From contig CACASI010000002.1 of NCBI GenBank assembly GCA_902535055.1, positions 15,333-79,332 on the forward strand: a stretch of 64,000 nucleotides of DNA, written 5' to 3'. The notes beneath the pieces were generated by a model. It searched no databases. It saw only the letters and a program-made list of their open reading frames with translations, and had not been told where the DNA came from. The stretch's first letter is position 1; every line of letters begins with the position of its first letter. Both the position numbers and the translations under genes were made by a program. The DNA comes from an uncultured Candidatus Actinomarina sp. (GTDB lineage: Bacteria > Actinomycetota > Acidimicrobiia > Actinomarinales > Actinomarinaceae). Of the stretch, positions 5,422-48,371 are shown piece after piece.

Positions 5422-5437
5422 CGTATTTTAATTATAG

Positions 5438-5775
5438 TGGAGGTGCGGGGAGTCGAACCCCGGTCCTTTTAAGCTACCAAACAGCTTCTCCGAGCGCATC
5501 TGGTGAAATACTATTGAGAGAGTCACCAGAAACAAATTCTCAATAGTTTTTACCTTAAATCTTAAAAGTTAGTCGGTAACCTAACTCAGCATCCCACATT
5601 TCGACGCCGATACTACCCGAGGTGGGAACCCCGGCAGTCGACGAGCAACAATTAAGCTGCTACGGCCAATTTAGGTTTGGCAGTTATCTTTTTTTTCCTA
5701 CGTTTTTAATGAGGCCCTAGGACCCTCAGCTCGCTACTGAGAGGCTCGCTTCAAAGTCGAAGCCAGTTCACCCCC
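5438..5775 (-). ncRNA. ssrA: tmRNA (SsrA)
   Basis: The minus strand starts GGGGGTGAACTGGCTTCGACTTTGAAGCGAGCC and ends GGGGTTCGACTCCCCGCACCTCCA, a tRNA-like acceptor/T-arm. An internal tag ORF GCC AAA CCT AAA TTG GCC GTA GCA GCT TAA (5681..5652) encodes AKPKLAVAA*. The region is GC-enriched relative to its flanks. Confidence 0.9.
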
Positions 5776-5825: not shown

Positions 5826-6473
5826 ATGAAAATTAACAACCAAACATTCAATTTAAATGAGGAATTAATTGTTTCAATTGATCAGGAAGACAACGATGGC
5901 CTTATCAATATTCCTAAAAATATAAATTTAGATATAAATATTGTAAATTATTTTGGAAAAATTGTTATTAACAGTATTTCTATAAATCACCTCCAAGATG
6001 AACTATCTTTATCAAAAACTGGTCTTGAGCAATCATTGAGTAATTTGGACATTAAATTATTAGACCGATTTTTGTTTAAACAATTAAGTGACAAAGCAAC
6101 ATTTAATTATTCACCTTTTGATTCTTTTCTTGATTACGACTTCACAATATTTGAAAAATCAAGAAGGATTTCTGATATTGACTGGTCAATGTTTGCTTCT
6201 CTCTATATATTTGCGTGTAATGTCATTCCAGAATCTATAAAGGTGGAGTTAACACTTGCAAAAAAGCTCAGGATTTCTGAAGAAAGTTTTAAAAGATTTT
6301 TGAAGAAGATTCCTGAAACAATATTTAGAAAAACTGGACATTTGGAATCGAGAGGTGGTAATTTAACCTTCGACGCTGAAGAGATAATAAAAAAGAACTT
6401 AACTGATGAACAAAGTGAATTATTTGAAAACAGTCCTTTTTTAAAATTTCATTCAGGATCAGATTTGGCTTGA
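5826..6473 (+). CDS. Hypothetical protein with two possible HTH-like segments
   Basis: A 215-aa ORF is unlikely by chance in AT-rich DNA. I recognise no family. ELTLAKKLRISEESFKRFLKK and LSKTGLEQSLSNL look helix-turn-helix-like. Confidence 0.45.
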   Translation: MKINNQTFNLNEELIVSIDQEDNDGLINIPKNINLDINIVNYFGKIVINSISINHLQDELSLSKTGLEQSLSNLDIKLLDRFLFKQLSDKATFNYSPFDSFLDYDFTIFEKSRRISDIDWSMFASLYIFACNVIPESIKVELTLAKKLRISEESFKRFLKKIPETIFRKTGHLESRGGNLTFDAEEIIKKNLTDEQSELFENSPFLKFHSGSDLA

Positions 6474-6889
6474 GGTCTAACCATTGAAATTATATTGTTC
6501 GTATCTACTTCCCAAATTTCTCTAGATTTAATATCTGCCTCATTCCAGCTCACTCCTGTATCTCTCCTATACGGCTTGCCTGTATATCGATTGGATAAAT
6601 AATCGATATGATCATTTGCACTATCATTATCAATAATATTTTCTACAACACCTCTTATTTCCCAACTTGAATACATTTCACTTGGATGAAATATAACAAT
6701 TGTAAGATTTGGGTTAATACGAATATTTTCAGTTTTTTTTCTTCCTTGTTCAGTATTAATAAGAATTTTATTTTCTTTGTAATCAACCCACATCAGATGA
6801 TTTTGAATAATGTTTTCGTCAATATTTGTGGCTATTGCACAAAATGCATTGTTATCAATTGCTAACTTTAATTCACTTGGTAATTGCAT
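6449..6889 (-). CDS. Pyridoxamine 5'-phosphate oxidase (PPOX)-fold protein, probable F420/FMN-dependent enzyme
   Basis: 146 aa. The pattern AFCAIATN...HLMWVDYKENKILINTEQGRKKTENIRINPNLTIVI...WEIRGVV is typical of the split-barrel PPOX class. Confidence 0.65.
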   Translation of the reverse strand: MQLPSELKLAIDNNAFCAIATNIDENIIQNHLMWVDYKENKILINTEQGRKKTENIRINPNLTIVIFHPSEMYSSWEIRGVVENIIDNDSANDHIDYLSNRYTGKPYRRDTGVSWNEADIKSREIWEVDTNNIISMVRPQAKSDPE

Positions 6890-6919: not shown

Positions 6920-7483
6920 ATGGCATTTATAAAATTATTTAATTTTGATGAAGCATCTGGCTTACTGAAAAAAGAATATGAAAAAGGATTGCGAAGAGCT
7001 GGAAGAATTTGGAATGTTCTCACTATACAATCACAGACTCCTCAAATTCTGAAAGATTCAATGAACTTATATGGTTCTACTATGTTTGGAAATTCAAATA
7101 TTTCTCGATTCGATAGTGAGTTACTTGCTGTTGTAACATCTATGTCGAATGAGTGTGAATATTGAATAAGAGCACATTTATTTGATCTCCGGTCGGAGAC
7201 AACAGATCAAAAGTTAGTTGATGAAATCGCGGAAGATTGGAGTACAAGTTCATTAACAAAAACTCAAATGGCAATGTGTAACTTTGCAAAAAAACTAACA
7301 GAAACACCAAGTAAAGTTAATGAAAATGATATTCAAACTTTACGAGATCTGAATTTGACTGACAAAGATATATCTCAAATTGTTCAAATAATTGGTTATT
7401 TTAATTATATAAACAGGGTTGCAGATGGTTTAGGACTTGAACCTGAAGATTTTATTGATAAAAAAGGGTATAAAGCGAAATAA
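6920..7483 (+). CDS. AhpD-like / carboxymuconolactone decarboxylase-family peroxidase-related protein with one in-frame TGA (7163..7165), a candidate selenocysteine; alternatively a pseudogene
   Basis: ORFs 6920..7165 and 7268..7483 are in the same frame. My translation of 7166..7267 has no stop (IRAHLFDLRSETTDQKLVDEIAEDWSTSSLTKTQ). The joined protein reads ...SMSNECEY[TGA]IRAH..., so the TGA sits where the family's N-x-C-x-Y-C-x-x-x-H motif has its second Cys. The C-terminal part (FAKKLTETP...IQTLRD...IIGYFNYINRVADGLG) also fits the family. Confidence 0.6.
7181..7211 (+). promoter_or_regulatory. SECIS-like stem-loop downstream of the in-frame TGA
   Basis: Upper stem TCTCC(7186-7190)/GGAGA(7195-7199) closes a GGTC loop (7191-7194). 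Lower stem is TTTGA(7181-7185)/TCAAA(7207-7211). The loop lies 29-32 nt from the U of the UGA. Confidence 0.4.
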
Positions 7484-7521: not shown

Positions 7522-8445
7522 ATGAACAGTAATCTGAGATTAAGTGTCTTATTAACAATTTTGATATCGATATCAGCTTTTTCATATTTTATTTTCATTA
7601 GAGATACTCAAAATGAACAAGTTGAAATTGAGAATCAAATTCAAACTAGCACGACCATCTCATCAACATCCACAACTTTGAAACCAGAAAATACAACTTC
7701 TACTTCTACTTCTACTTCTACTTCTACAACTACAACTACAACTACAACTACAACTACAACTATTCCACCAAATCAAACGGTAATATATGCAACTGCTCAA
7801 GAGATAAATAGTAGTAAAAAAATATCATATGACTATTTAAAGGGAGGGTGTAAGGAAGATTCAATAGGTGACATTGAAGAAGAATGGGTTTTGCCATACG
7901 AGTTATCTATTTTCGATGAAGAAAAGATAAATTTCAGCCTTAAACTTGATTCCTCATTAGGTCTAAATGTTGAATGTTTGGGCAAACTAATCTCTTCAAT
8001 TTTAAATGATTCAAGAGGTTGGATTAAAGTTACGGATAAAGAATTTCAACTTGTAGATAATTCTGAAAGCGAATTTGAATTCATATTTGCTTCACCAGAT
8101 AAAACAGATGAGTTATGCTTCCCGCTTGAAACTAATGGAATCTATTCATGTAAAAATGAACAACAAATTGTTATTAATTATTTTAGATGGATCAATGGAG
8201 CTATTGATTTTGGATCAGATATGGAAACGTACAGGCTGTATCTTATAAATCATGAAGTTGGACATATTTTAGGTTGGGGTCATGTTGGATGTCCAAAGGA
8301 AGATGCACTTGCACCAGTAATGATGCAACAAAGCAAATCAACTATGGGATGTGTTCCTTACGGATGGCCAATATATGAAATCATCGAAAAAGAATTTGGG
8401 ATAGATACATATTCTTTACTTCCAAAAACTGAAGAAGATAGTTAA
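7522..8445 (+). CDS. Secreted/anchored metzincin-like protein (DUF3152-like) with a Thr/Ser linker
   Basis: 307 aa with an N-terminal TM/signal anchor, a (TS)n(T)n linker and a C-terminal HEVGHILGWGH (HExxHxxGxxH) zinc motif. Confidence 0.65.
   Translation: MNSNLRLSVLLTILISISAFSYFIFIRDTQNEQVEIENQIQTSTTISSTSTTLKPENTTSTSTSTSTSTTTTTTTTTTTTIPPNQTVIYATAQEINSSKKISYDYLKGGCKEDSIGDIEEEWVLPYELSIFDEEKINFSLKLDSSLGLNVECLGKLISSILNDSRGWIKVTDKEFQLVDNSESEFEFIFASPDKTDELCFPLETNGIYSCKNEQQIVINYFRWINGAIDFGSDMETYRLYLINHEVGHILGWGHVGCPKEDALAPVMMQQSKSTMGCVPYGWPIYEIIEKEFGIDTYSLLPKTEEDS
7696..7761 (+). repeat. Perfect hexanucleotide tandem repeats (ACTTCT)x5 followed by (ACAACT)x6
   Basis: Read directly from the sequence. 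They encode TSTSTSTSTS followed by a 12-residue Thr run inside the 7522..8445 CDS. Confidence 0.95.
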
Positions 8446-11126: not shown

Positions 11127-11561
11127 TTATTTGTAGTTCCTTATTTCTTTTTTGACCCTTTTTTCAGTCATTTTGTTTCTTTTGTCAAAATTTTTCATAC
11201 CTTTTGATAAAGCTATTTCAACTTTTATGAATCCATTTTGTTCAAAAACTTTAGTAGCAATAAGCGTAAGACCCTTTGTTGAAGTTAATCCAATTAATCT
11301 TTTTATCTCTTTTTTGTGTAATAACAACTTTCTAGGAGCTTTTGGATTGTAATCTATTAATTCTGCATATTTGTAAGGTTCAATATTCATTTCTCTCAAA
11401 ATTGCTTCTTCATTTTCAACAGTTGCAAATGCATCAATTATAGAAAGTGCTCCATTTCTTATGCTTTTTGTTTCAGCTCCAGTCAAAACAATTCCTGCTT
11501 CAAAAAATTCAATAAATTCATATGAATTTCTTGCTTTTCTATTTTCTGCAAATACTTTCAT
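11127..11561 (-). CDS. smpB: SsrA-binding protein SmpB
   Basis: ENRKARNSYEFIEFFEAGIVLTGAETKSIRNG and LLLHKKEI blocks. I chose the ATG at 11561 (MKVFAENRKA), which forms an ATGA overlap with the upstream gene's stop. The ORF track offers a longer start at 11576. Confidence 0.88.
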   Translation of the reverse strand: MKVFAENRKARNSYEFIEFFEAGIVLTGAETKSIRNGALSIIDAFATVENEEAILREMNIEPYKYAELIDYNPKAPRKLLLHKKEIKRLIGLTSTKGLTLIATKVFEQNGFIKVEIALSKGMKNFDKRNKMTEKRVKKEIRNYK

Positions 11562-12934
11562 CAATCTAAGAAACAATAAGGATTCATTCTACCTCTAGAA
11601 GTTGGATCTAGGTAGGGAAGACTACAACTGACAGAGTTTGGATTTTTTAAGCGTACTTCAAAGTGTAAATGTGGTCCTGACGATCTTCCTGTATTTCCAA
11701 CTGTTCCAATTACATCACCAGTTACAACTGTCTGTCCAACTGAAGTTCTTATTTCATTCATATGGAAATACAATGTAGTCATACCTCCCCCATGATCAAT
11801 AAAAACTGTTCTTCCAGCTAAGCCGTAATATCTTGCAAGAATAACCACTCCTCCTGCAGCAGCTTTTATTGGAGTTCCTGTTCTTCCAGGAATGTCTATA
11901 GCTCCATGAAAACTTGTAACACCTCTAAATCTTCTCCATTTGTAACCACTTGAAACATAACTACCAGTTATAGGCCAAGTTAACTTGTTTGGAGCTACTC
12001 CACCAAGAGAACTTAATCTATTAATGTCCGCTTGAATAGCATCTTCAAGCTTTTCAAGATTCGCATGTTCTGCATCTAGCTTTGCAAGTTGATTATTTGC
12101 TTCAGTAAGGAGATTCTGTGCTTTTTTTCTCTCTGCTAAAACAGCAGCTTTTTTATTTTCAACTTGTCGTTTCTCTCTCTCTACTCTATTTTTACTTTCT
12201 TCAACTTCTTCAGCATTTTCTTCAGCTTCAATTGATATTTGATTCTTTCTTTCTTCTTCCATTTGTAATGAGGAAATAATTTCTTCCCTTTGCTCTTCGC
12301 GTTCAGATAAAAATTCAGTTTGCGTTTCCGATAAGCTTTCAAAAGAATTTAAGGATTCAATTATTTCATACGCTGTATTCACAATTGCTGATGCATAGCC
12401 CAATGCTGCTAAAAAATCTGATAAATCATTGAGACTTATGAATAAGGCAGTTGCCGGACTCATCACTCCATCTATATACATGTCTACTGCTTTAATCTGT
12501 AACTCATCTTTTGCAGAATTTAAATTTTTTTGTGTCTCAAATAATTCATCTTTAACTTTTGCTATTTCATTTTTAGTTTTCCCTAAAGTCACTTGTTCTC
12601 TAACAATATTTTCCTGAACTGATGCAAGATTATTTAATGATTGATCATATCCCTCTAATGCTTTTTCTAAGGCAGCTTCAGCAATTGCAAGTTTCCGCTG
12701 AACCTCAGCAAGTTCATCATTAACTTTCTTAAGTGCTGTGTCGTTTGCTAAAATATTTTTTTCTAAATCTGTCTTATCACCCTCATATTGTTTTATTTGA
12801 TTAGCTATTGCTATCAACTGCTTTTCTACCTCTTCTAATCTTTCTTCAGCTGTGATTGCATTAGAAGGTTCTATCACGATCGTTTGTAATGTAATTACAA
12901 ATAATATAAAAGATATTAAAGTCTTTTTAATCAT
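11561..12934 (-). CDS. M23-family peptidoglycan DD-metalloendopeptidase with a long N-terminal coiled coil (EnvC-like)
   Basis: 457 aa with a signal anchor and long coiled coil. The C-terminal M23 motifs are HGAIDIPG and GPHLHFEV. It lies directly downstream of ftsE-ftsX. Confidence 0.85.
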   Translation of the reverse strand: MIKKTLISFILFVITLQTIVIEPSNAITAEERLEEVEKQLIAIANQIKQYEGDKTDLEKNILANDTALKKVNDELAEVQRKLAIAEAALEKALEGYDQSLNNLASVQENIVREQVTLGKTKNEIAKVKDELFETQKNLNSAKDELQIKAVDMYIDGVMSPATALFISLNDLSDFLAALGYASAIVNTAYEIIESLNSFESLSETQTEFLSEREEQREEIISSLQMEEERKNQISIEAEENAEEVEESKNRVEREKRQVENKKAAVLAERKKAQNLLTEANNQLAKLDAEHANLEKLEDAIQADINRLSSLGGVAPNKLTWPITGSYVSSGYKWRRFRGVTSFHGAIDIPGRTGTPIKAAAGGVVILARYYGLAGRTVFIDHGGGMTTLYFHMNEIRTSVGQTVVTGDVIGTVGNTGRSSGPHLHFEVRLKNPNSVSCSLPYLDPTSRGRMNPYCFLD

Positions 12935-42108: not shown

Positions 42109-43755
42109 TTAAATAGAGGCAAAGGAATCTTTTGCGTGATATGAAGATCTTACAAGTGGACCAGATTCAATATGTGGAATCCCTAGCTCTTGACCAATAA
42201 TTTTGTATTCTTCAAATTCTTCTTTAGGTGCATATCTGTGGATAGGTCTGTGCCTTTGTGTAGGTCTTAAGTACTGGCCGATTGTTACAATATCAATGTC
42301 AATTTGAGATAAATCTTTTAAAACTGCAACAACTTCCTCAAATTCTTCACCCATTCCTACAATTAAGCCTGTTTTCGTCTTGCCAAGAAAGTGAGAATCT
42401 TTTGCATATTGAAGCAAAGAGAGTGATCGTCCATATGAAGCTGCAGTTCTTATTTCTCTTTGTAATCTTGGGACCGTCTCAAGATTATGGTTTAATACTT
42501 CTGGGTTAGCATTAATTATGTTCTCTATCGCTCCTCTGTCTCCTTTAAAGTCTGGTATTAATACTTCAACTGAAGTTTGAGGATTCATTAACTTTACTTC
42601 ATCTATTGTTTTTGCAAAGAAATTTGATCCACCGTCTTGAAGGTCATCCCTATTTACTGAGGTAATTACTGCATGAGTAAGCTCCATAATTTTTACACTT
42701 TCAGCAACTCTATACGGCTCATCCATATCAAGATCTGTGGGTTTACCAGTATTTACATCACAAAATCCACAGGCTCTTGTACATGTTTCACCCATAATCA
42801 TAAATGTTGCAGTGCCCATGGACCAACATTCGTATATATTTGGACATGAGGCTTCTTCACAAACTGTATTCAATCGTTTTTCTTTAATCAAACTTTTGAG
42901 TGATAGATAATCTTTTCCTAAGTTTGCTTTCACCTTCATCCATTCAGGCCTCTCGGGTTCGTTTTTAATACTTGACTTAAAGGAAACTGGAATTGCATTC
43001 TTAGAAGAATTAAATACACCTTTTTCAACTAATTGATCAATGTCAAATTCCTTCTTTTTCTTTAGTTGTCGTGGTGTAAATTGTGAAAATTGTTCATCAA
43101 CTTTTTTATACTCAAATATTTCTGAAAATTTTTTTGAAATTACATCGGTTACTTCTTTAAATGAAATATTCTTGTCATAATTTTGAATTGCGACAATTCT
43201 TTCTTCACTGTCTCCACAGGGATTTATGAAATCGTAACCTTTCGTATTATCTGTAATATTTAATGAAAAGCCATGGAATGTAGTCCATTTGCTAACCTTA
43301 ATTCCAATTGACGCTATTTTTCCTTCATTTGTCCAAACGCCTGTATCGTCATGTTTTGAGAAAGCAGAAATTGAAAATGTTGACAATGTATCGATTATGA
43401 CTTTCTCAATTTTTCTAACAAACGGAATTACTTTTTTTGGATCATCTAATCTAATTATTGGATACCCAATTAATTGTCCATCACCATGAAAAGTAATGTC
43501 ACCACCTCTATCGGTTTCATAAAATTCAATATTATTTTTATTTAATGTATCTTCGGTAACTAAAAGATTATTCTTATCACCTGATCTTCCAATAGTGATT
43601 ACATTGTTGTGTTCTAGTAAAAGCAAGTAATCGTAATTAGATTTCTCAGAACTTACTGATGAATGTAGTCCTTTTTGAAGGTCAATTGCTTCTTTATATG
43701 GAAGTTTTCCCAGCCATCTAATATTTAATTCTCTCAAGATATTTCCTGAGACCAA
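42109..43755 (-). CDS. lipB/lipA: Fusion protein: octanoyltransferase LipB (N-terminal) + lipoyl synthase LipA (C-terminal)
   Basis: One uninterrupted 548-aa ORF. LipB motifs are RGGDITFHGDGQ, KIASIGIKVS, HGFSLN and NPCG. LipA motifs are CEEASCPNIYEC and the radical-SAM CTRACGFC. Confidence 0.85.
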   Translation of the reverse strand: MVSGNILRELNIRWLGKLPYKEAIDLQKGLHSSVSSEKSNYDYLLLLEHNNVITIGRSGDKNNLLVTEDTLNKNNIEFYETDRGGDITFHGDGQLIGYPIIRLDDPKKVIPFVRKIEKVIIDTLSTFSISAFSKHDDTGVWTNEGKIASIGIKVSKWTTFHGFSLNITDNTKGYDFINPCGDSEERIVAIQNYDKNISFKEVTDVISKKFSEIFEYKKVDEQFSQFTPRQLKKKKEFDIDQLVEKGVFNSSKNAIPVSFKSSIKNEPERPEWMKVKANLGKDYLSLKSLIKEKRLNTVCEEASCPNIYECWSMGTATFMIMGETCTRACGFCDVNTGKPTDLDMDEPYRVAESVKIMELTHAVITSVNRDDLQDGGSNFFAKTIDEVKLMNPQTSVEVLIPDFKGDRGAIENIINANPEVLNHNLETVPRLQREIRTAASYGRSLSLLQYAKDSHFLGKTKTGLIVGMGEEFEEVVAVLKDLSQIDIDIVTIGQYLRPTQRHRPIHRYAPKEEFEEYKIIGQELGIPHIESGPLVRSSYHAKDSFASI

Positions 43756-44996
43756 TCGGTACTTTCAATTCTTGTTTTAATTGAATTTAAAAATAACAGA
43801 GCAGTAGAACCATCAAAAACTCTATGATCCCATGTCAAACTCAGTATCCCAATATGCCTAATTGAAATTGAATCTGATCCATCTTCCATCTCAATCACAA
43901 CTGGGCGCTTTTTCACTGATTCTGTTGAAAGAATAGCAACGTTTGGTTGATTGATTATTGGTGATGTTAAAAATGAATTGAAAGAGCCATTGTTTGATAT
44001 CGTAAATGTACTTCCCGACACATCATCTAGATTGTAACTTCCATCTCTAAGAAGAGTTGAAATCTCAGATATCTTTCTAGCAGTGCCTGTAAGATTATAA
44101 GAATCAGCCTCCTTTATTGTTCCAACAAGTAATCCATTTTGGTTTATGTCGACTGCAATACCCAATTGAATATTCTCATGAATCAAATGAACATTTTTAT
44201 CTATATCAAAAGAGCTATTAACAACAGGAAATTCGCGTAAGGCACTTACTACAGCTTTTGCAATAAATGGAAGATATGTAAGTGAAAAATTGTTTTCATT
44301 TTTAAAATTATCTTTAACTTTACTTCTTAAATTCTCTACGTTTTCAAAATCAACTTCAACTGAAGTCATTACATGCGCAGAAGTTTGCTTTGAGTGAATC
44401 ATGTTTTCAGCAATTTTCTTACGTAATCTAGGTATTTCACCTGTATTTGTTGACTTATTATTATCAGTAACTTCCTTCGGTTTTTGGTGACCATTATTTA
44501 AATACTTATCTATATCTTTTCTTGTAACTCGACCATCTTTTCCTGTGCCAGTAACTTGAAGTAGATCTATATTATTTTCTGAAGCAAGTTTTCTTACGAC
44601 AGGTGAGACTTTGCCTAAGGCTTGAGTACTTTGTATATTTTTGGTTTCAGTTACAGTTTGTTCGTTTTCAAAAATTTCTTGAGCAGGTTCTTCTATTTTT
44701 TCTATTTTGACTTCTTGTTCTACTGATTCAGTTGCTTCAGCATTTAAGTTTTCAGTAGAAGTACCGTCTAACACTAATAATGGAGACCCCACTTCAACTG
44801 TCTCACCCTCTTCTACTAATAAAGAAGAAACAGTTCCACTAAAAGGACTTGGTACTTCAGTATCAACTTTGTCTGTTGAAATCTCTAAGATTGGATCGTC
44901 TTCTTTAATTTCATCACCAACTTTTACAAGCCAGCGCAGAATAGTTCCCTCAGTAACAGTTTCTCCTAGTTGTGGCATTGTGATGCGTTCACTCAT
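43734..44996 (-). CDS. Dihydrolipoamide acyltransferase (E2) of a 2-oxoacid dehydrogenase complex
   Basis: 420 aa with a lipoyl domain (EISTDKVDTEVPSP), a PSBD (SPVVRKLASENNIDL) and a catalytic DHRVFDG. Confidence 0.9.
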   Translation of the reverse strand: MSERITMPQLGETVTEGTILRWLVKVGDEIKEDDPILEISTDKVDTEVPSPFSGTVSSLLVEEGETVEVGSPLLVLDGTSTENLNAEATESVEQEVKIEKIEEPAQEIFENEQTVTETKNIQSTQALGKVSPVVRKLASENNIDLLQVTGTGKDGRVTRKDIDKYLNNGHQKPKEVTDNNKSTNTGEIPRLRKKIAENMIHSKQTSAHVMTSVEVDFENVENLRSKVKDNFKNENNFSLTYLPFIAKAVVSALREFPVVNSSFDIDKNVHLIHENIQLGIAVDINQNGLLVGTIKEADSYNLTGTARKISEISTLLRDGSYNLDDVSGSTFTISNNGSFNSFLTSPIINQPNVAILSTESVKKRPVVIEMEDGSDSISIRHIGILSLTWDHRVFDGSTALLFLNSIKTRIESTDWSQEIS

Positions 44997-45000
44997 AATT

Positions 45001-47007
45001 TTATTGTAATTCTTTTATGGCATTTACAACTTTTTGAGCGCTTGGAATAAATGCATCTTCAAGTACTGGCGCGAAAGGTATATGTGTATTTGGTGATGTT
45101 ATTTTTATAATTGGATTGTCTAGATCCCAAAATCCTTTCTCAGCAATTAGAGATGATATTTCTGAAGCTACCGATGAGAAAGGGACGTCTTCTTGTAAAA
45201 TACAAACATTTGATGTCTTTGCTACAGATTTCAATATAATTTCTTCATCTAATGGGACAATTGTTCTAATGTCCACAATTTCAACTGAAATATCTTCTTT
45301 TTCAAGAATGTTTGCTGCTTCTTCAGCAACAGAAACCATTCCTGACCAGGTAACAATTGTTATATCCGATCCTTCTTTGACTACTCTACCTTTACCAATT
45401 TCGACTTCATATAGCCCAATTGGAACATCCATTTTTAGGTCTGGTTTTCTATAAAGTTTTTTATGTTCAAGATACATGACAGGATTTGGATCATTAACAG
45501 CTGCAACAAGTAGCCCTTTTGCATCATATGGGTTTGATGGAGCAACAACTTTTATACCCGGATGGTGTGCAAGTAATGACTCTGGGCTAATTGAATGAAA
45601 AGGTCCCGAACGTGTACCAGCACCAGTTGGACCTCTCACAACCATTGGAACAGCTTTGCCAGCTTTCCAATGATATTTTGCTGCTTCAGTAGTTAATTGA
45701 TCAAGCGCAGGGTAAACAAAATCATAAAATTGTAATTCAACAATTGGTTTTTGGCCAGCTAATGCAGCTCCCACTGCTGCACCTGTAAATCCACCTTCTG
45801 AAATTGCTGTATCTATAACTCTAAATGGACCATATTTTTCAAAAAGCCCTTTTGTTGCTTTGAAAGCCCCTTCAAAAACACCTACATCTTCTCCCATAAT
45901 GAAAACACCTTCATCATTTTTCATCAATTCATCTAGTCCATTATTTATGGCTTCTATAAAGTTCATTGTTTGTAAATTATTTTCTGTATTTTCAATTACA
46001 GGGATAGTTCTCTTAGCGAACATATCATTTAATTCATCTTTTGGATCTGGCTCCTCTTGGGTTTTAGCCCACTCAAGAGTTTCCTTTATTTCAGTTTCTA
46101 AATTACTTTCTAATTGAATAAAATCATCCTCACTAAATAATCCCTCAGTTAAAAGGGAGTCTTCAAATCTTGCAATCGGATCTCTTTTCATCCAGAAATC
46201 TCTTACTTCATCTTCAACATAATCTGCAGGATCATGACCAGCGTGTCCATAATGTCTAAAAGTAACTAATTCGATTAAAGTTGGACCTTTACCTTTTCTA
46301 GCATTTTCACATGCTTCATGGATTGAATCGATAACGTCATAGATATCATTACCATCAATAATTAGTGACGGAATACCATAACCTGCTCCTCTATCTGCAA
46401 CATTTGGTGTCCCAAACTCAGTTTCATTGGGTGATGAATAGGCAAATTGGTTATTTTGAACTGTAAAGACAACTGGTAAATTTAATACTCCAGCCATGTT
46501 TACACTTTCATGCCATGTGCCTGTCGCAGTTGCACCTTCTCCACAATTAGCTATAGCAACCACTCCACTTCCCTGTTGTTGTGATGCAAGCGCCCAACCA
46601 ACTGCAACTGGTGCTGAGTCAGGTAATGGGGATACAACCATCAAGGTCCCCTTGTCAACTACACCAAAGTGACTATTACCATCTCGTCCTTTTGAAGGTC
46701 CGTCTTTTTTTCCAAAAAAATTAAGTGCAACTTCTTTTAGTGTTACCCCTTTCATTAATTGAACTCCAAGATCTCTATGAGTGCCGCCAAAAATATCTTT
46801 GTCATCCATTCCAGCACCAATACCAGCCATCGAGGCTTCTTGTCCTATTCCTGGATATACAGCTCCACTTAGTTGTCCCCCTTTATACATTTTTAATAAT
46901 CTGTCTTCAAGAAGTCTCTGAGTTTTCATAGACTTATAAATTTCCCACAACTGCTCATTAGTAAGTTCTGATGAATATCCTTTTCTAACAATCTTTTCAA
47001 TTTGCAT
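45001..47007 (-). CDS. Fused E1 alpha/beta subunit of a TPP-dependent 2-oxoacid dehydrogenase
   Basis: 668 aa. The N-terminal half is the alpha (TPP-binding) subunit, with GEGATATG...NLPVVFTVQNNQFA. The C-terminal half is beta, with MNFIEAINNGL...GEDVG...IDTAISEGGFTG. Confidence 0.85.
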   Translation of the reverse strand: MQIEKIVRKGYSSELTNEQLWEIYKSMKTQRLLEDRLLKMYKGGQLSGAVYPGIGQEASMAGIGAGMDDKDIFGGTHRDLGVQLMKGVTLKEVALNFFGKKDGPSKGRDGNSHFGVVDKGTLMVVSPLPDSAPVAVGWALASQQQGSGVVAIANCGEGATATGTWHESVNMAGVLNLPVVFTVQNNQFAYSSPNETEFGTPNVADRGAGYGIPSLIIDGNDIYDVIDSIHEACENARKGKGPTLIELVTFRHYGHAGHDPADYVEDEVRDFWMKRDPIARFEDSLLTEGLFSEDDFIQLESNLETEIKETLEWAKTQEEPDPKDELNDMFAKRTIPVIENTENNLQTMNFIEAINNGLDELMKNDEGVFIMGEDVGVFEGAFKATKGLFEKYGPFRVIDTAISEGGFTGAAVGAALAGQKPIVELQFYDFVYPALDQLTTEAAKYHWKAGKAVPMVVRGPTGAGTRSGPFHSISPESLLAHHPGIKVVAPSNPYDAKGLLVAAVNDPNPVMYLEHKKLYRKPDLKMDVPIGLYEVEIGKGRVVKEGSDITIVTWSGMVSVAEEAANILEKEDISVEIVDIRTIVPLDEEIILKSVAKTSNVCILQEDVPFSSVASEISSLIAEKGFWDLDNPIIKITSPNTHIPFAPVLEDAFIPSAQKVVNAIKELQ

Positions 47008-48371
47008 TAATGTAATCCTTTCCCAGTTAAGCCAAGTAACGATTCGCCAACTGCCTCGCTTAATGTTGGATGTGCATGAATAAATTCTGCTGCCTCTTCT
47101 GGCAAAGCTTCCCAGCCAACCATATACATTATTTCATGTATCATTTCTCCAGCTGAAGGACCACATATACTTGCTCCAACTATTGGGCCTTTTTTTTCTG
47201 AATAAACTTTTACTAGTCCTTGATTTTGCTCAGTAATCATTGCTCTACCGATGCCAGCAAAGCTATGTTGTGATTGATCAATTTCGATATCATTTAACTT
47301 TGCTTTTTCGGCATTTAAACCAACCTCTGCCAGTTCCGGCCTTGTATAAACAACATATGGAATAGCGTTGTAATCAAGTGGCTTCTTGTCACCAGTTGCA
47401 ATAAATGTGACTGCAGAAATTGACTCTGCAAATGCTGCGTGAGCTAATTGAGGTGTATTAGCGACAATATCTCCTAAAGCAAAAATATTTTCTTCTGAGG
47501 TTTGAAACGTTTCTAGGTCAACATTTATAAAACCATTTTCAGTAACAATATTTACGTTGTCCAATCCAATATTTTCAGTCAATGGTGATCTACCAATAGC
47601 AACCAAAACAGAATCATATTCTTTAGTTTCGTTATCTGAAAAACTAACTTGTTTGTCATCAATCTTTTCAATTGAAGTATTTAATTTAAATTCAACTCCT
47701 CGTTTTGAAAGCTGTTTTCTTAACTCACCAGATGTTCTTTTATCTAATCCTGGAAGGATCTCTTTGGCAATCTCTACAACGGTAACTTCTGAACCAAGAT
47801 CATTAAGCAAGCTTGCAAATTCACAACCAATTGCACCGGCTCCAACAATACAAACTCTTTTGGGTGGCTCATCCCAATTAAGAGCACTGTCAGATGTAAC
47901 TATAAAGTTTTCATCAATTTTAATATCGGGCAGCTCTCTTGGTTTTGAACCTGTAGCAAGCAAGATATAATCACTTTCTACTTTTTCAGTTGAGCCATCA
48001 GATTTATTTACTAAGACGGTATTTTTATTTTCAATAGAGCCCCAGCCTTCAATAACTTTTACTTTTTTACCGTTTAAAAGTGTCTTAATTCCAGAAACTA
48101 GTTTATCAATTACCTCAATTCTTTTTAACGAGGTTTTTTTCCAATCAATTGTTTTATTCTCAATATTTATTCCATAGTTGCTAGAGTTGGATATTTCATG
48201 ATTTAACTCAGCAACATGAAGCCAATATTTTGCAGGAATACAGCCACGATTTAAACAAGTTCCCCCTAAAACATCGGATTCAATTAAGGTAATTTCTAGA
48301 TCAAAGTTGTGAGCATATAATGCTGCGGCATAACCAGCTGGGCCACCGCCAATAATTGTTAATTTTTTCAA
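47007..48371 (-). CDS. lpdA: Dihydrolipoyl dehydrogenase (E3)
   Basis: 454 aa with GGGPAGY, the redox-active GGTCLNRGCIPAK disulfide and a C-terminal HAHPTLSE. TTG start with an AAAGAGG SD. Confidence 0.92.
   Translation of the reverse strand: MKKLTIIGGGPAGYAAALYAHNFDLEITLIESDVLGGTCLNRGCIPAKYWLHVAELNHEISNSSNYGINIENKTIDWKKTSLKRIEVIDKLVSGIKTLLNGKKVKVIEGWGSIENKNTVLVNKSDGSTEKVESDYILLATGSKPRELPDIKIDENFIVTSDSALNWDEPPKRVCIVGAGAIGCEFASLLNDLGSEVTVVEIAKEILPGLDKRTSGELRKQLSKRGVEFKLNTSIEKIDDKQVSFSDNETKEYDSVLVAIGRSPLTENIGLDNVNIVTENGFINVDLETFQTSEENIFALGDIVANTPQLAHAAFAESISAVTFIATGDKKPLDYNAIPYVVYTRPELAEVGLNAEKAKLNDIEIDQSQHSFAGIGRAMITEQNQGLVKVYSEKKGPIVGASICGPSAGEMIHEIMYMVGWEALPEEAAEFIHAHPTLSEAVGESLLGLTGKGLH

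Follow-up and report, generated by a model that had tools for sequence, protein, structure and literature searches.

A stretch of the genome of an uncultured Candidatus Actinomarina, previously read as two small open reading frames (ORFs), very probably contains one selenoprotein gene. On the evidence of sequence comparison, the ORFs 6920..7165 and 7268..7483 would together encode a 187-residue AhpD-like thiol/selenol oxidoreductase (TIGR01926/COG2128), in which UGA at codon 82 is decoded as selenocysteine (Sec) and a hairpin lying just downstream, within the coding sequence, serves as the SECIS element. The find is correct but ordinary, ocean metagenomes having yielded this family of CxxU selenoproteins as early as 2005. 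Throughout, 'the window' refers to the whole stretch of DNA that was analysed, 64,000 nucleotides in length; the positions of the features are collected in the table.

A single reading frame and its active site

Inspection of the frames bears out the initial annotation, which had described two ORFs in the same frame parted by one TGA and no other stop. The joined ORF runs from an ATG at 6920 to a TAA at 7481..7483, its only internal stop is the TGA at 7163..7165, and the product around that codon reads ...VVTSMSNECEY-TGA-IRAH.... The intervening sequence, 7166..7267, contains no start codon and yet is conserved at the protein level (IRAHLYDLRSET... in alignment A1). There are eight same-frame ORF pairs in the uncovered regions of the window, of which this pair alone is protein-like. 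The assignment to the AhpD/CMD 'peroxidase-related' family, also made at the outset, holds: the joined protein scores 134.9 bits against the TIGR01926 "peroxidase-related enzyme" profile (cutoff 81.8) over residues 4-177 of its 187, passes the Pfam CMD cutoff as well, and has homologues in the PDB (3c1l, 6k40, 2oyo, 2pfx and 2prr) with E-values from 1e-19 to 1e-24, the best being 6.6e-24. Membership of NF041238, 'AhpD_rel_CFYUT', was considered and rejected, since the protein reaches 50.4 bits against a cutoff of 175 and matches only the C-terminal domain of the model (positions 214-339 of 357).

Table. Features of the candidate selenoprotein gene, in window coordinates
Feature	Position	Strand	Details
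AhpD-like/peroxidase-related selenoprotein gene (predicted), complete	6920..7483	+	187 codons including Sec82, then TAA; TIGR01926 and Pfam CMD; full-length orthologues in 80 genome loci
Active-site segment with AhpD proton-relay residues	7118..7177	+	E67 7118-7120; C79 7154-7156; Y81 7160-7162; U82 7163-7165; H86 7175-7177
TGA, predicted to be read as Sec82, second Cys of C-x-x-C (C79-E80-Y81-U82)	7163..7165	+	TGA in 80/80 loci; Cys in homologues
Putative SECIS core, conserved: 5-bp UCUCC/GGAGA stem, GGUC tetraloop	7186..7199	+	TCTCC 7186-7190, GGTC loop 7191-7194, GGAGA 7195-7199; four core pairs in 81/81; covariation; low synonymous entropy and rare codons
Extended hairpin with lower stem TTTGA/TCAAA	7181..7211	+	TTTGA 7181-7185, TCAAA 7207-7211; present in window, not conserved

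The TGA occupies precisely the column of the second Cys in the N-x-C-x-Y-C-x-x-x-H motif, as had been proposed. Cys is aligned to it in the PDB homologues 3c1l and 6k40, which read NHCYYC and NRCVYC, and in the more distant Acidimicrobiia relatives P0046-P0052. Alignment A1 shows almost no variation at E67, Y81 and H86, and the spacing of E67/C79/Y81/U82/H86 is identical to that of E36/C48/Y50/C51/H55 in Pseudomonas aeruginosa PA0269, the counterparts in Mycobacterium tuberculosis AhpD being E118/C130/H132/C133/H137 (PMC3141380). The alignment shows the predicted Sec82 in place of the second Cys of C-x-x-C, within the full proton-relay set of AhpD.

Orthologues were compared at 80 related loci, made up of 30 Actinomarina species genomes and 50 high-GC loci, mostly from Acidimicrobiia, the labels of the latter being Acidimicrobiia, Actinomycetota, Chloroflexota/Anaerolineae, Acidobacteriota and one Kiloniellales. 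(The window's own host has a GC content of 32%.) It had been left to such a comparison whether this column would hold TGA or TGC/TGT in related genomes, and TGA is found in all 80; the frame beyond it continues for 104-123 codons without additional stops or frameshifts, one locus running off its contig. Median dN/dS is 0.055 upstream of the TGA and 0.145 downstream, which contradicts the suggestion, raised initially as grounds for doubt, that the region past the TGA might be unconserved. No Cys variant was seen at this column among database matches of at least 60% identity. Instead, 46 database proteins show 'W' there, including every column-spanning match at or above that identity, and in the four W proteins whose DNA was checked (P0001, P0004 on two contigs, and P0025) the DNA either has TGA at this position or has no table 11 translation; a single relative has AGA (Arg). 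None of the close orthologues is annotated as a selenoprotein in any source, and the name 'peroxidase-related enzyme' is attached to Cys-type relatives only.

The hairpin downstream of the TGA

The initial annotation had drawn a hairpin in two parts, an upper stem closing a GGTC loop and a lower stem beneath it, and the two parts have fared differently. In the window the lower stem begins at the 16th nucleotide after the TGA, the upper stem follows after 20 nucleotides and the loop after 25. Four pairs of the upper, core helix are intact in 81 of 81 sequences, and RNAalifold, applied to 31 Actinomarina sequences, returns the 5-bp upper stem alone. The lower stem is shared by the window and its two closest relatives (L001 and L002) only, most orthologues having TATGA...ACCAA or ATCAA in the flanks instead, and it probably lies outside the functional element. 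Since the TGA is present in every locus and the core helix unbroken in every sequence, the observation as a whole is far beyond chance.

Conservation of the upper hairpin wherever the TGA is present is accompanied by compensatory change, both of which the initial annotation had named as a check. At pair 30:43 of alignment A2, 41 sequences have C-G, 38 have U-A and two have U-G, and none breaks the pair; it covaries within the high-GC set taken separately (Fisher p = 3.6e-7). The covariation score of 0.221, against 0.135 for shuffled alignments, was reached in none of 500 shuffles, and slid registers gave lower scores, these counts being uncorrected for phylogeny. At the level of codons, the change links the third base of an Asp codon to the first base of a Thr, Val or Ile codon (GAC-GTN 41, GAT-ACN 31, GAT-ATC 7 and, as a wobble pair, GAT-GTC 2), while the combination GAC-ATC is absent from the 81 sequences. 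In the six-base loop segment the second base (A2 column 35) is a G, invariant across these sequences and followed by G or U; the GGUC loop itself is identical in 31/31 Actinomarina sequences, and in the high-GC relatives a stem of 7 bp carries a 6-nt loop such as CGGGAU. The Actinomarina hairpin is spelled in part with very rare codons: within their synonymous families the window uses CTC at 3.6%, CGG at 1.6%, TCG at 4.4% and GAG at 20.5%, a product of about 5e-6, and CGG, TCG and GAG are each fixed in 30/30 Actinomarina genes. Synonymous entropy over codons 88-93 is 0.18 bits against a mean of 1.04 for the gene, and is the lowest of any such segment within it. Part of the nucleotide conservation in the hairpin is nevertheless due to conservation of the peptide that it encodes, D-L-R-x-E.

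Thermodynamically, the element is unexceptional. A 63-nt segment from the window folds at -9.6 kcal/mol, with z = -0.37 relative to shuffled sequences, and the minimum-energy fold of a 60-nt segment is a competing structure rather than the hairpin; for these two reasons single-sequence folding was dropped as a criterion. Among 25 distinct Actinomarina sequences, the minimum-energy fold contains the hairpin in 11. When the helix is enforced, energies of -7.5 kcal/mol or below are obtained in 11 of the 25 (median -7.3) and in 48 of 48 high-GC sequences, and a 33-nt stretch of the window gives -8.2 kcal/mol.

In the published bSECIS model an apical loop of 3-9 nt, with G among its first two bases and usually then G or U, lies 16-37 nt from the UGA on a stem of 4-16 bp, and the minimum free energy is -7.5 kcal/mol or less (PMC13188914). 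In loop, stem and spacing the Actinomarina element falls within this description, having a loop of 4 nt beginning GG, a stem of 5 bp and a distance of 25 nt. The SECIS models of Rfam gave no match over the whole window at the gathering threshold, nor over 7100-7300 at E-values up to 10, a result that says little because Rfam covers bacterial SECIS elements poorly. A comparison with Escherichia coli fdhF, also made in the initial annotation, stands in part. The fdhF SECIS is a 17-nt stem-loop 11 nt from the UGA, with an essential bulged U17 and critical G23 and U24 in the loop (PMC8659212), and what the Actinomarina element shares with it is the position of a hairpin within the ORF, 3' of the UGA, and a GGUC apical loop with its G-U dinucleotide. 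In contrast, its stem starts 20 nt after the UGA, placing the G-U about 7 nt further downstream, and its helix is perfect and without a bulged U, both in Actinomarina (5 bp) and in the high-GC relatives (7 bp). It departs from the fdhF type in spacing and in the bulged U and agrees with it in the G-U of the loop.

Alternative readings of the TGA

Were the TGA an inactivating nonsense mutation, 6920..7165 and 7268..7483 would be the remnants of a pseudogene, or else independent small ORFs. It is true that gene calling under table 11 breaks the gene in two at this point and that the window itself is without Sec machinery. However, the same codon recurs in 80/80 loci across several phyla, the frame being otherwise free of stops and frameshifts, dN/dS beyond it is only 0.145, and 7166..7267, which could not be translated from a start codon of its own, is conserved as protein. 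The recurrence of the TGA together with the low downstream dN/dS effectively refutes a pseudogene or split gene, to which we attach practically no weight.

A UGA that is decoded might still be decoded as something other than Sec, whether as Trp under code 4, as Gly under code 25, or through near-cognate read-through (Trp, Cys or Arg) stimulated by the hairpin. Seawater is poor in selenium, and bacteria are known to decode UGA with near-cognate tRNAs; the W in 46 database proteins, and the Arg codon in one relative, would also fit a reading other than Sec. Against this, TGA terminates 12 of the 51 long ORFs in the window, among them the minus-strand gene ending at 11561..11563 that had been cited from the start as an example of TGA in its normal role, and coding density under table 11 is 0.90; code 4 reassignment was rejected on these figures. 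The same TGA occurs in high-GC Acidimicrobiia, which are not known to use code 4. Furthermore, homologues have their catalytic Cys in this column, and a Trp or Gly there would abolish the redox centre; the hairpin agrees with SECIS rules, and Sec machinery has been reported for the genus, all of which makes decoding as another amino acid very unlikely. The UGA might otherwise act as a selenium-dependent switch, mostly terminating translation to leave an 81-residue fragment with a role of its own, and yielding the full-length protein only when the cell has selenium at its disposal. Insertion of Sec tends to be inefficient, bacterial selenoproteins are often accompanied by truncated products, and the hairpin is weak in Actinomarina. 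Yet the fragment would have neither the nucleophile nor H86, nor any of the fold's C-terminal half, which the PDB homologues conserve, and nothing points to its functioning independently; we consider such a switch extremely improbable, and it would be compatible with the Sec explanation rather than an alternative to it.

The initial inference that the gene is translated through the UGA as Sec is supported by the constancy of the TGA, by the Cys of homologues, by the conserved hairpin and by the reported presence of selA, selB, selC and selD, and the in-frame TGA almost certainly encodes selenocysteine. The genes selA, selC and selD, with a divergent selB, are reported from 84/84 complete Actinomarina genomes, together with approximately five predicted selenoproteins per genome (bioRxiv 10.64898/2026.04.03.716425), and the Sec competence of the window's own genome rests on this preprint about related genomes. 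In our own data, no tRNA-Sec was found in the window or in 60 fetched loci (about 20 kb per genome), and tblastn gave no match to SelA or SelD in the window and 83 loci (also about 20 kb per genome, with approximate E. coli queries); with coverage of only some 20 kb per genome, these nulls are uninformative.

Relatives and a possible lipoyl link

AhpD-like selenoproteins from marine metagenomes had been mentioned in the initial annotation, and the literature agrees: the Sargasso Sea selenoproteome of 2005 has 27 sequences under the name 'AhpD-like protein' (PMC1088965), the GOS data of 2008 have 299 under the name 'AhpD-like 1' (PMC2398784), and a published list of selenoprotein families includes 'AhpD-like protein, TIGR01926, CxxU' (PMC13188914). 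The present protein resembles these in its family (TIGR01926/COG2128), in a CxxU motif whose predicted Sec takes the place of the second Cys, in a putative SECIS within the ORF just downstream and in its origin from marine surface water. Nothing essential sets it apart from the Sargasso and GOS family, although a host, Ca. Actinomarina, can now be named where the metagenome papers could not assign one. With regard to orthology with the published sequences, the NCBI contigs that we recovered carry the prefixes CESM and CEVE, against AACY in the example given in PMC1088965. The NF041238 proteins and the PF02627 CMD-domain CxxU selenoproteins ('AhpD-like 2') likewise carry a CxxU motif together with an AhpD/CMD domain akin to the present one. 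Novelty is low because AhpD-like CxxU proteins are an established and abundant marine family, and current understanding of selenoproteins is unchanged. What is gained is a named and interpretable member of the set of about five selenoproteins recently predicted per genome for Actinomarina, which is among the most abundant and smallest free-living bacteria of the ocean. A selenol peroxide/disulfide reductase would suit a sunlit, oxidising habitat and may be part of the reason that the Sec machinery persists in a genome of about 1.1 Mb. Since such genes are otherwise split under table 11, or given Trp at the catalytic position as in 46 public clusters, Sec-aware annotation is needed.

By sequence, the protein belongs to the all-helical CMD/AhpD fold family alongside M. 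tuberculosis AhpD (AhpC/AhpD/DlaT/Lpd), PA0269 (2o4d), Mlr4105 (3c1l) and Deinococcus radiodurans DR_1765 (6k40). It has the Glu/Cys/Tyr-or-His/Cys/His relay of M. tuberculosis AhpD and the solved AhpD-like proteins with identical spacing, and differs from them in having the predicted Sec where they have the second Cys. DR_1765, the nearest solved homologue, is itself only 12% identical to M. tuberculosis AhpD, which is reduced via a lipoamide protein (PMC8945050).

We propose a mechanism in which the UGA at codon 82 is recoded, as its conservation suggests, when the 5-bp/GGUC hairpin 20 nt past it acts as a bacterial SECIS within the ORF and recruits SelB with Sec-tRNA(Sec) to the ribosome. 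If M. tuberculosis AhpD is a guide, Sec82 would then be the attacking nucleophile and would form a selenenyl-sulfide either with Cys79 or with a partner, for instance a peroxiredoxin or a peroxide. Both the identity of the oxidant and the lipoyl-dependent step that follows are matters that we infer: the oxidised centre would probably be re-reduced by dihydrolipoamide on the E2 of a 2-oxoacid dehydrogenase, together with Lpd. A lipoamide-linked redox role is supported by the position of the gene directly after a lipoyl-E2 gene in most high-GC relatives, where it appears to be translationally coupled to the end of the E2 gene; this arrangement echoes the lipoamide-dependent reduction of M. tuberculosis AhpD and suggests a reductant that is testable. 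Pfam confirms both E2 and E1 in the high-GC loci with an adjoining E2, and no ahpC was seen among the neighbours examined.

A broader reading, which we put forward tentatively and regard as somewhat doubtful, would join these strands. The element may be a stripped-down SECIS, consisting of a 5-bp stem and GGUC loop 20 nt from the UGA without lower stem or bulged U, that is read by the divergent SelB of the genus; and 2-oxoacid dehydrogenase complexes may have in this selenoprotein subfamily a dedicated outlet that depends on selenium, passing electrons from dihydrolipoyl-E2 to peroxide detoxification, hard-wired as an E1-E2-AhpD(Sec) operon in Acidimicrobiia and uncoupled in the streamlined Actinomarina. 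Of the 44 high-GC loci with enough flanking sequence to judge, 31 have an E2 gene whose end lies no more than 10 nt upstream. The adjacency to E2 is absent in Actinomarina itself, and the window elsewhere encodes the genus's own cluster of E3, E1, E2 and a LipB-LipA fusion.

The UGA codon as probable selenocysteine

The AhpD-like gene is a single frame interrupted only by TGA at codon 82, as the initial annotation had proposed from two ORFs sharing a frame; no other stop precedes the terminal TAA (see table). The joined product of 187 residues reads ...VVTSMSNECEY-U-IRAHLFDLRSET... and, with Cys put at the TGA, scores 134.9 bits against NCBIfam TIGR01926 ('peroxidase-related enzyme'; cutoff 81.8) and also passes the Pfam CMD PF02627 threshold, which bears out the family assignment made earlier. 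TGA is an ordinary stop codon in this genome, terminating 12 of the 51 long ORFs of the window, where coding density is 0.90 with table 11, again as first noted.

Coordinates of the features discussed (window positions, unless a locus is named)
Feature	Position	Strand	Remark
AhpD-like gene	ATG 6920, TGA 7163-7165, TAA 7481-7483	+	single frame, no further stop
Hairpin upper stem	7186-7190 with 7195-7199	+	as first described
Hairpin GGUC loop	7191-7194	+	
Hairpin lower stem	7181-7185 with 7207-7211	+	in window, conservation absent
tmRNA gene	5435-5775	-	Rfam 152 bits; tag peptide AKPKLAVAA
PNPOx-like protein	6449-6889	-	divergent immediate neighbour
DUF3152 protein	7522-8445	+	immediate downstream neighbour
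smpB	11127-11576	-	5 kb away
LipB-LipA fusion (apparent)	42109-43755	-	548-aa ORF, directly downstream of E3-E1-E2 cluster
E2	43734-44996		
E1	45001-47007		single 668-aa alpha-beta fusion
E3	47007-48371		
Example E2	L031:7843-9168		high-GC locus
Example E1 alpha	L047:6743-7759		high-GC locus
Example Peptidase_S10-like	L074:7867-9345		high-GC locus

A scan with one genome per species returned 80 related loci, 30 from Candidatus Actinomarina and 50 of high GC (45-74%). The best relatives are Actinomarina single-cell genomes and MAGs (AG-343-O04 at 97% amino-acid identity) with a GC of about 32%, as in the window, and the Actinomarina loci keep local synteny; the high-GC loci are mostly Acidimicrobiia, together with MAGs labelled Chloroflexota/Anaerolineae, Acidobacteriota and one Kiloniellales. 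The codon is TGA in 80/80 loci, within N-x-C-x-Y-TGA-x-x-x-H, and 104-123 further codons follow before an ordinary stop, except that one locus is cut off by the end of its contig. Median pairwise dN/dS among Actinomarina orthologues is 0.055 upstream of the TGA and 0.145 downstream, which shows that selection keeps both halves as protein in this frame; these observations together rule out a pseudogene or two independent small ORFs. Close relatives (identity at least 60%) in a 5.8-billion-cluster protein database include no Cys variant, while Cys occupies the column in more distant Acidimicrobiia relatives (45-48% identity) and in the solved structures 3c1l and 6k40, so that the orthologue comparison comes out in favour of the original reading. 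We consider it very likely that UGA encodes Sec in this gene.

No tRNA-Sec, selA or selD was found in the window or any of the loci compared, which says little, as each genome is represented by only a small part of its sequence. According to the 2026 preprint 'Actinomarina, resolved', each of the 84 complete Actinomarina genomes carries selC, selA, selD and a divergent selB; selenouridine synthase is reportedly absent, and deep-Sep predicts about five selenoproteins per genome, mostly unnamed. The term AhpD appears nowhere in the preprint (bioRxiv 10.64898/2026.04.03.716425).

Every column-spanning match of at least 60% identity in the protein database carries 'W' at this position. Trp is given for TGA in 46 clusters of public metagenome gene calls (among P0001-P0044, P0053, P0055, P0057 and P0060), and P0037 and P0038 have an internal gap over the region instead. 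Three W proteins (four contigs; loci L083-L086) cannot be translated from their DNA under table 11, and the codon in L083, inspected base by base, is TGA. The 'W' thus comes from code-4 gene calling, an artefact that is systematic for this family and presumably arises where short AT-rich contigs are handled with genetic code 4. A separate case is P0054, a 43-50% identical relative encoded in two independent samples (L081:3001-3582 and L082:638-1219), where AGA (Arg) replaces TGA and the hairpin GACCUCCGGGCUGAGGUC is still kept; the pattern suggests that Sec at a catalytic position has recently given way to Arg. The protein P0045 also has R at the column.

The candidate SECIS hairpin

In an ungapped alignment of 81 sequences (A2), the four-pair core (columns 30-33 with 40-43) is paired in 81/81. 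The upper stem and GGUC loop first described are present in the window, and the lower stem proposed beneath them is not conserved. Pair 30:43 links two codons: its 5' base is the silent third position of Asp, and its partner opens a Thr, Val or Ile codon. No sequence breaks this pair, which occurs as C-G (41 sequences), U-A (38) or U-G (2). Among high-GC sequences GAC accompanies GTN in 41 cases, and GAT accompanies ATC in 7 and GTC in 2 (wobble), with no GAC-ATC (Fisher p = 3.6e-7, uncorrected for phylogeny). In high-GC relatives the stem has 7 bp (CGACCUC/GAGGUCG) and the loop 6 nt; in Actinomarina a 5-bp stem (UCUCC/GGAGA) closes a GGUC tetraloop that is the same in 31/31 sequences.

The Actinomarina hairpin is built from codons that the genome avoids, judged by their shares of synonymous families in the window (CTC (Leu) 3.6%, CGG (Arg) 1.6%, TCG (Ser) 4.4%, GAG (Glu) 20.5%), and CGG, TCG and GAG are nonetheless fixed in 30/30 genes. 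Codons 88-93 are the synonymous entropy minimum of the whole gene (0.18 bits versus a mean of 1.04), unlike those of Arg84 and Ser76, which vary freely. Such patterns indicate that selection on this stretch acts on the RNA, beyond the peptide alone.

The hairpin matches the published bacterial SECIS model in loop size, stem length, loop G and a spacing of 25 nt from the UGA (PMC13188914). The suggested likeness to the E. coli fdhF SECIS extends to the shared GGUC, but not to the 11-nt spacing and bulged U17 of fdhF (PMC8659212). Stability in Actinomarina is marginal: the median constrained energy is -7.3 kcal/mol, only 11 of the 25 distinct sequences include the helix in their minimum-energy fold, and the 60-nt minimum-energy fold of the window itself is a competing helix. 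Rfam holds no model matching the hairpin.

Proposed catalysis and electron supply, and the known family

The second Cys (C133) of M. tuberculosis AhpD is the attacking nucleophile, and by analogy Sec82 would take this role, cycling via a selenenyl-sulfide with C79. Residues E67, C79, Y81, U82 and H86 align at the same spacing as the PA0269 proton-relay set E36/C48/Y50/C51/H55, their M. tuberculosis counterparts being E118/C130/H132/C133/H137 (PMC3141380). Of the high-GC loci, 44 extend far enough upstream to show the preceding gene, and in 31 of these (within L029-L079) an E2 (dihydrolipoamide acyltransferase) gene ends at most 10 nt from the AhpD-like start on the same strand, with an E1 gene further upstream and a Peptidase_S10-like (S10 carboxypeptidase-like) gene downstream; the Sec-containing gene is apparently the final redox member of an E1-E2 operon. 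In M. tuberculosis, a lipoamide-bearing E2 and lipoamide dehydrogenase re-reduce AhpD (PMC8945050); taken with the E2 adjacency, this route supports a putative lipoyl-dependent electron supply. The arrangement is absent from the Chloroflexota loci and from Actinomarina; in the window E3, E1, E2 and LipB-LipA genes are encoded, with the AhpD-like gene not adjacent.

By every sequence-level measure the gene belongs to the AhpD-like TIGR01926 CxxU selenoprotein family. The Sargasso Sea study introduced that family among its new ones, with 27 sequences (COG2128; PMC1088965), and in GOS, as 'AhpD-like 1' with 299 sequences, it was fourth most abundant (PMC2398784), in line with the marine metagenomic reports first noted; it is also listed in a 2026 review (TIGR01926, CxxU; PMC13188914) and has a separate entry in BSepDB. 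The kind is therefore already known: the inference of Sec is supported and its discovery value is small. The modest additions are Actinomarina as the host, the recognition that public protein sets systematically mistranslate the codon as 'W', and the apparent E2-AhpD(Sec) operon in Acidimicrobiia.

Other genes of the window

The PNPOx-like and DUF3152 neighbours give no further functional clue for the selenoprotein. The DUF3152 protein has an N-terminal hydrophobic segment, a long Ser/Thr-rich low-complexity linker (TSTSTSTSTSTTTTTTTTTTTT) and an HExxH-like motif, HEVGHILGWGH. The apparent LipB-LipA fusion combines lipoyl(octanoyl) transferase (LplA-B_cat) and lipoyl synthase (LIAS_N plus Radical_SAM) domains. 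ORF 5826..6473 (+), which has no Pfam match, converges on the PNPOx-like ORF with a 25-nt overlap of 3' ends (6449-6473), both stopping at TGA. The tmRNA gene lies about 1.1 kb upstream of the selenoprotein gene in the window, and its position, about 1.4 kb upstream across the Actinomarina loci, is kept in all of them; between loci its tag differs at a single residue, which is V, L or I.
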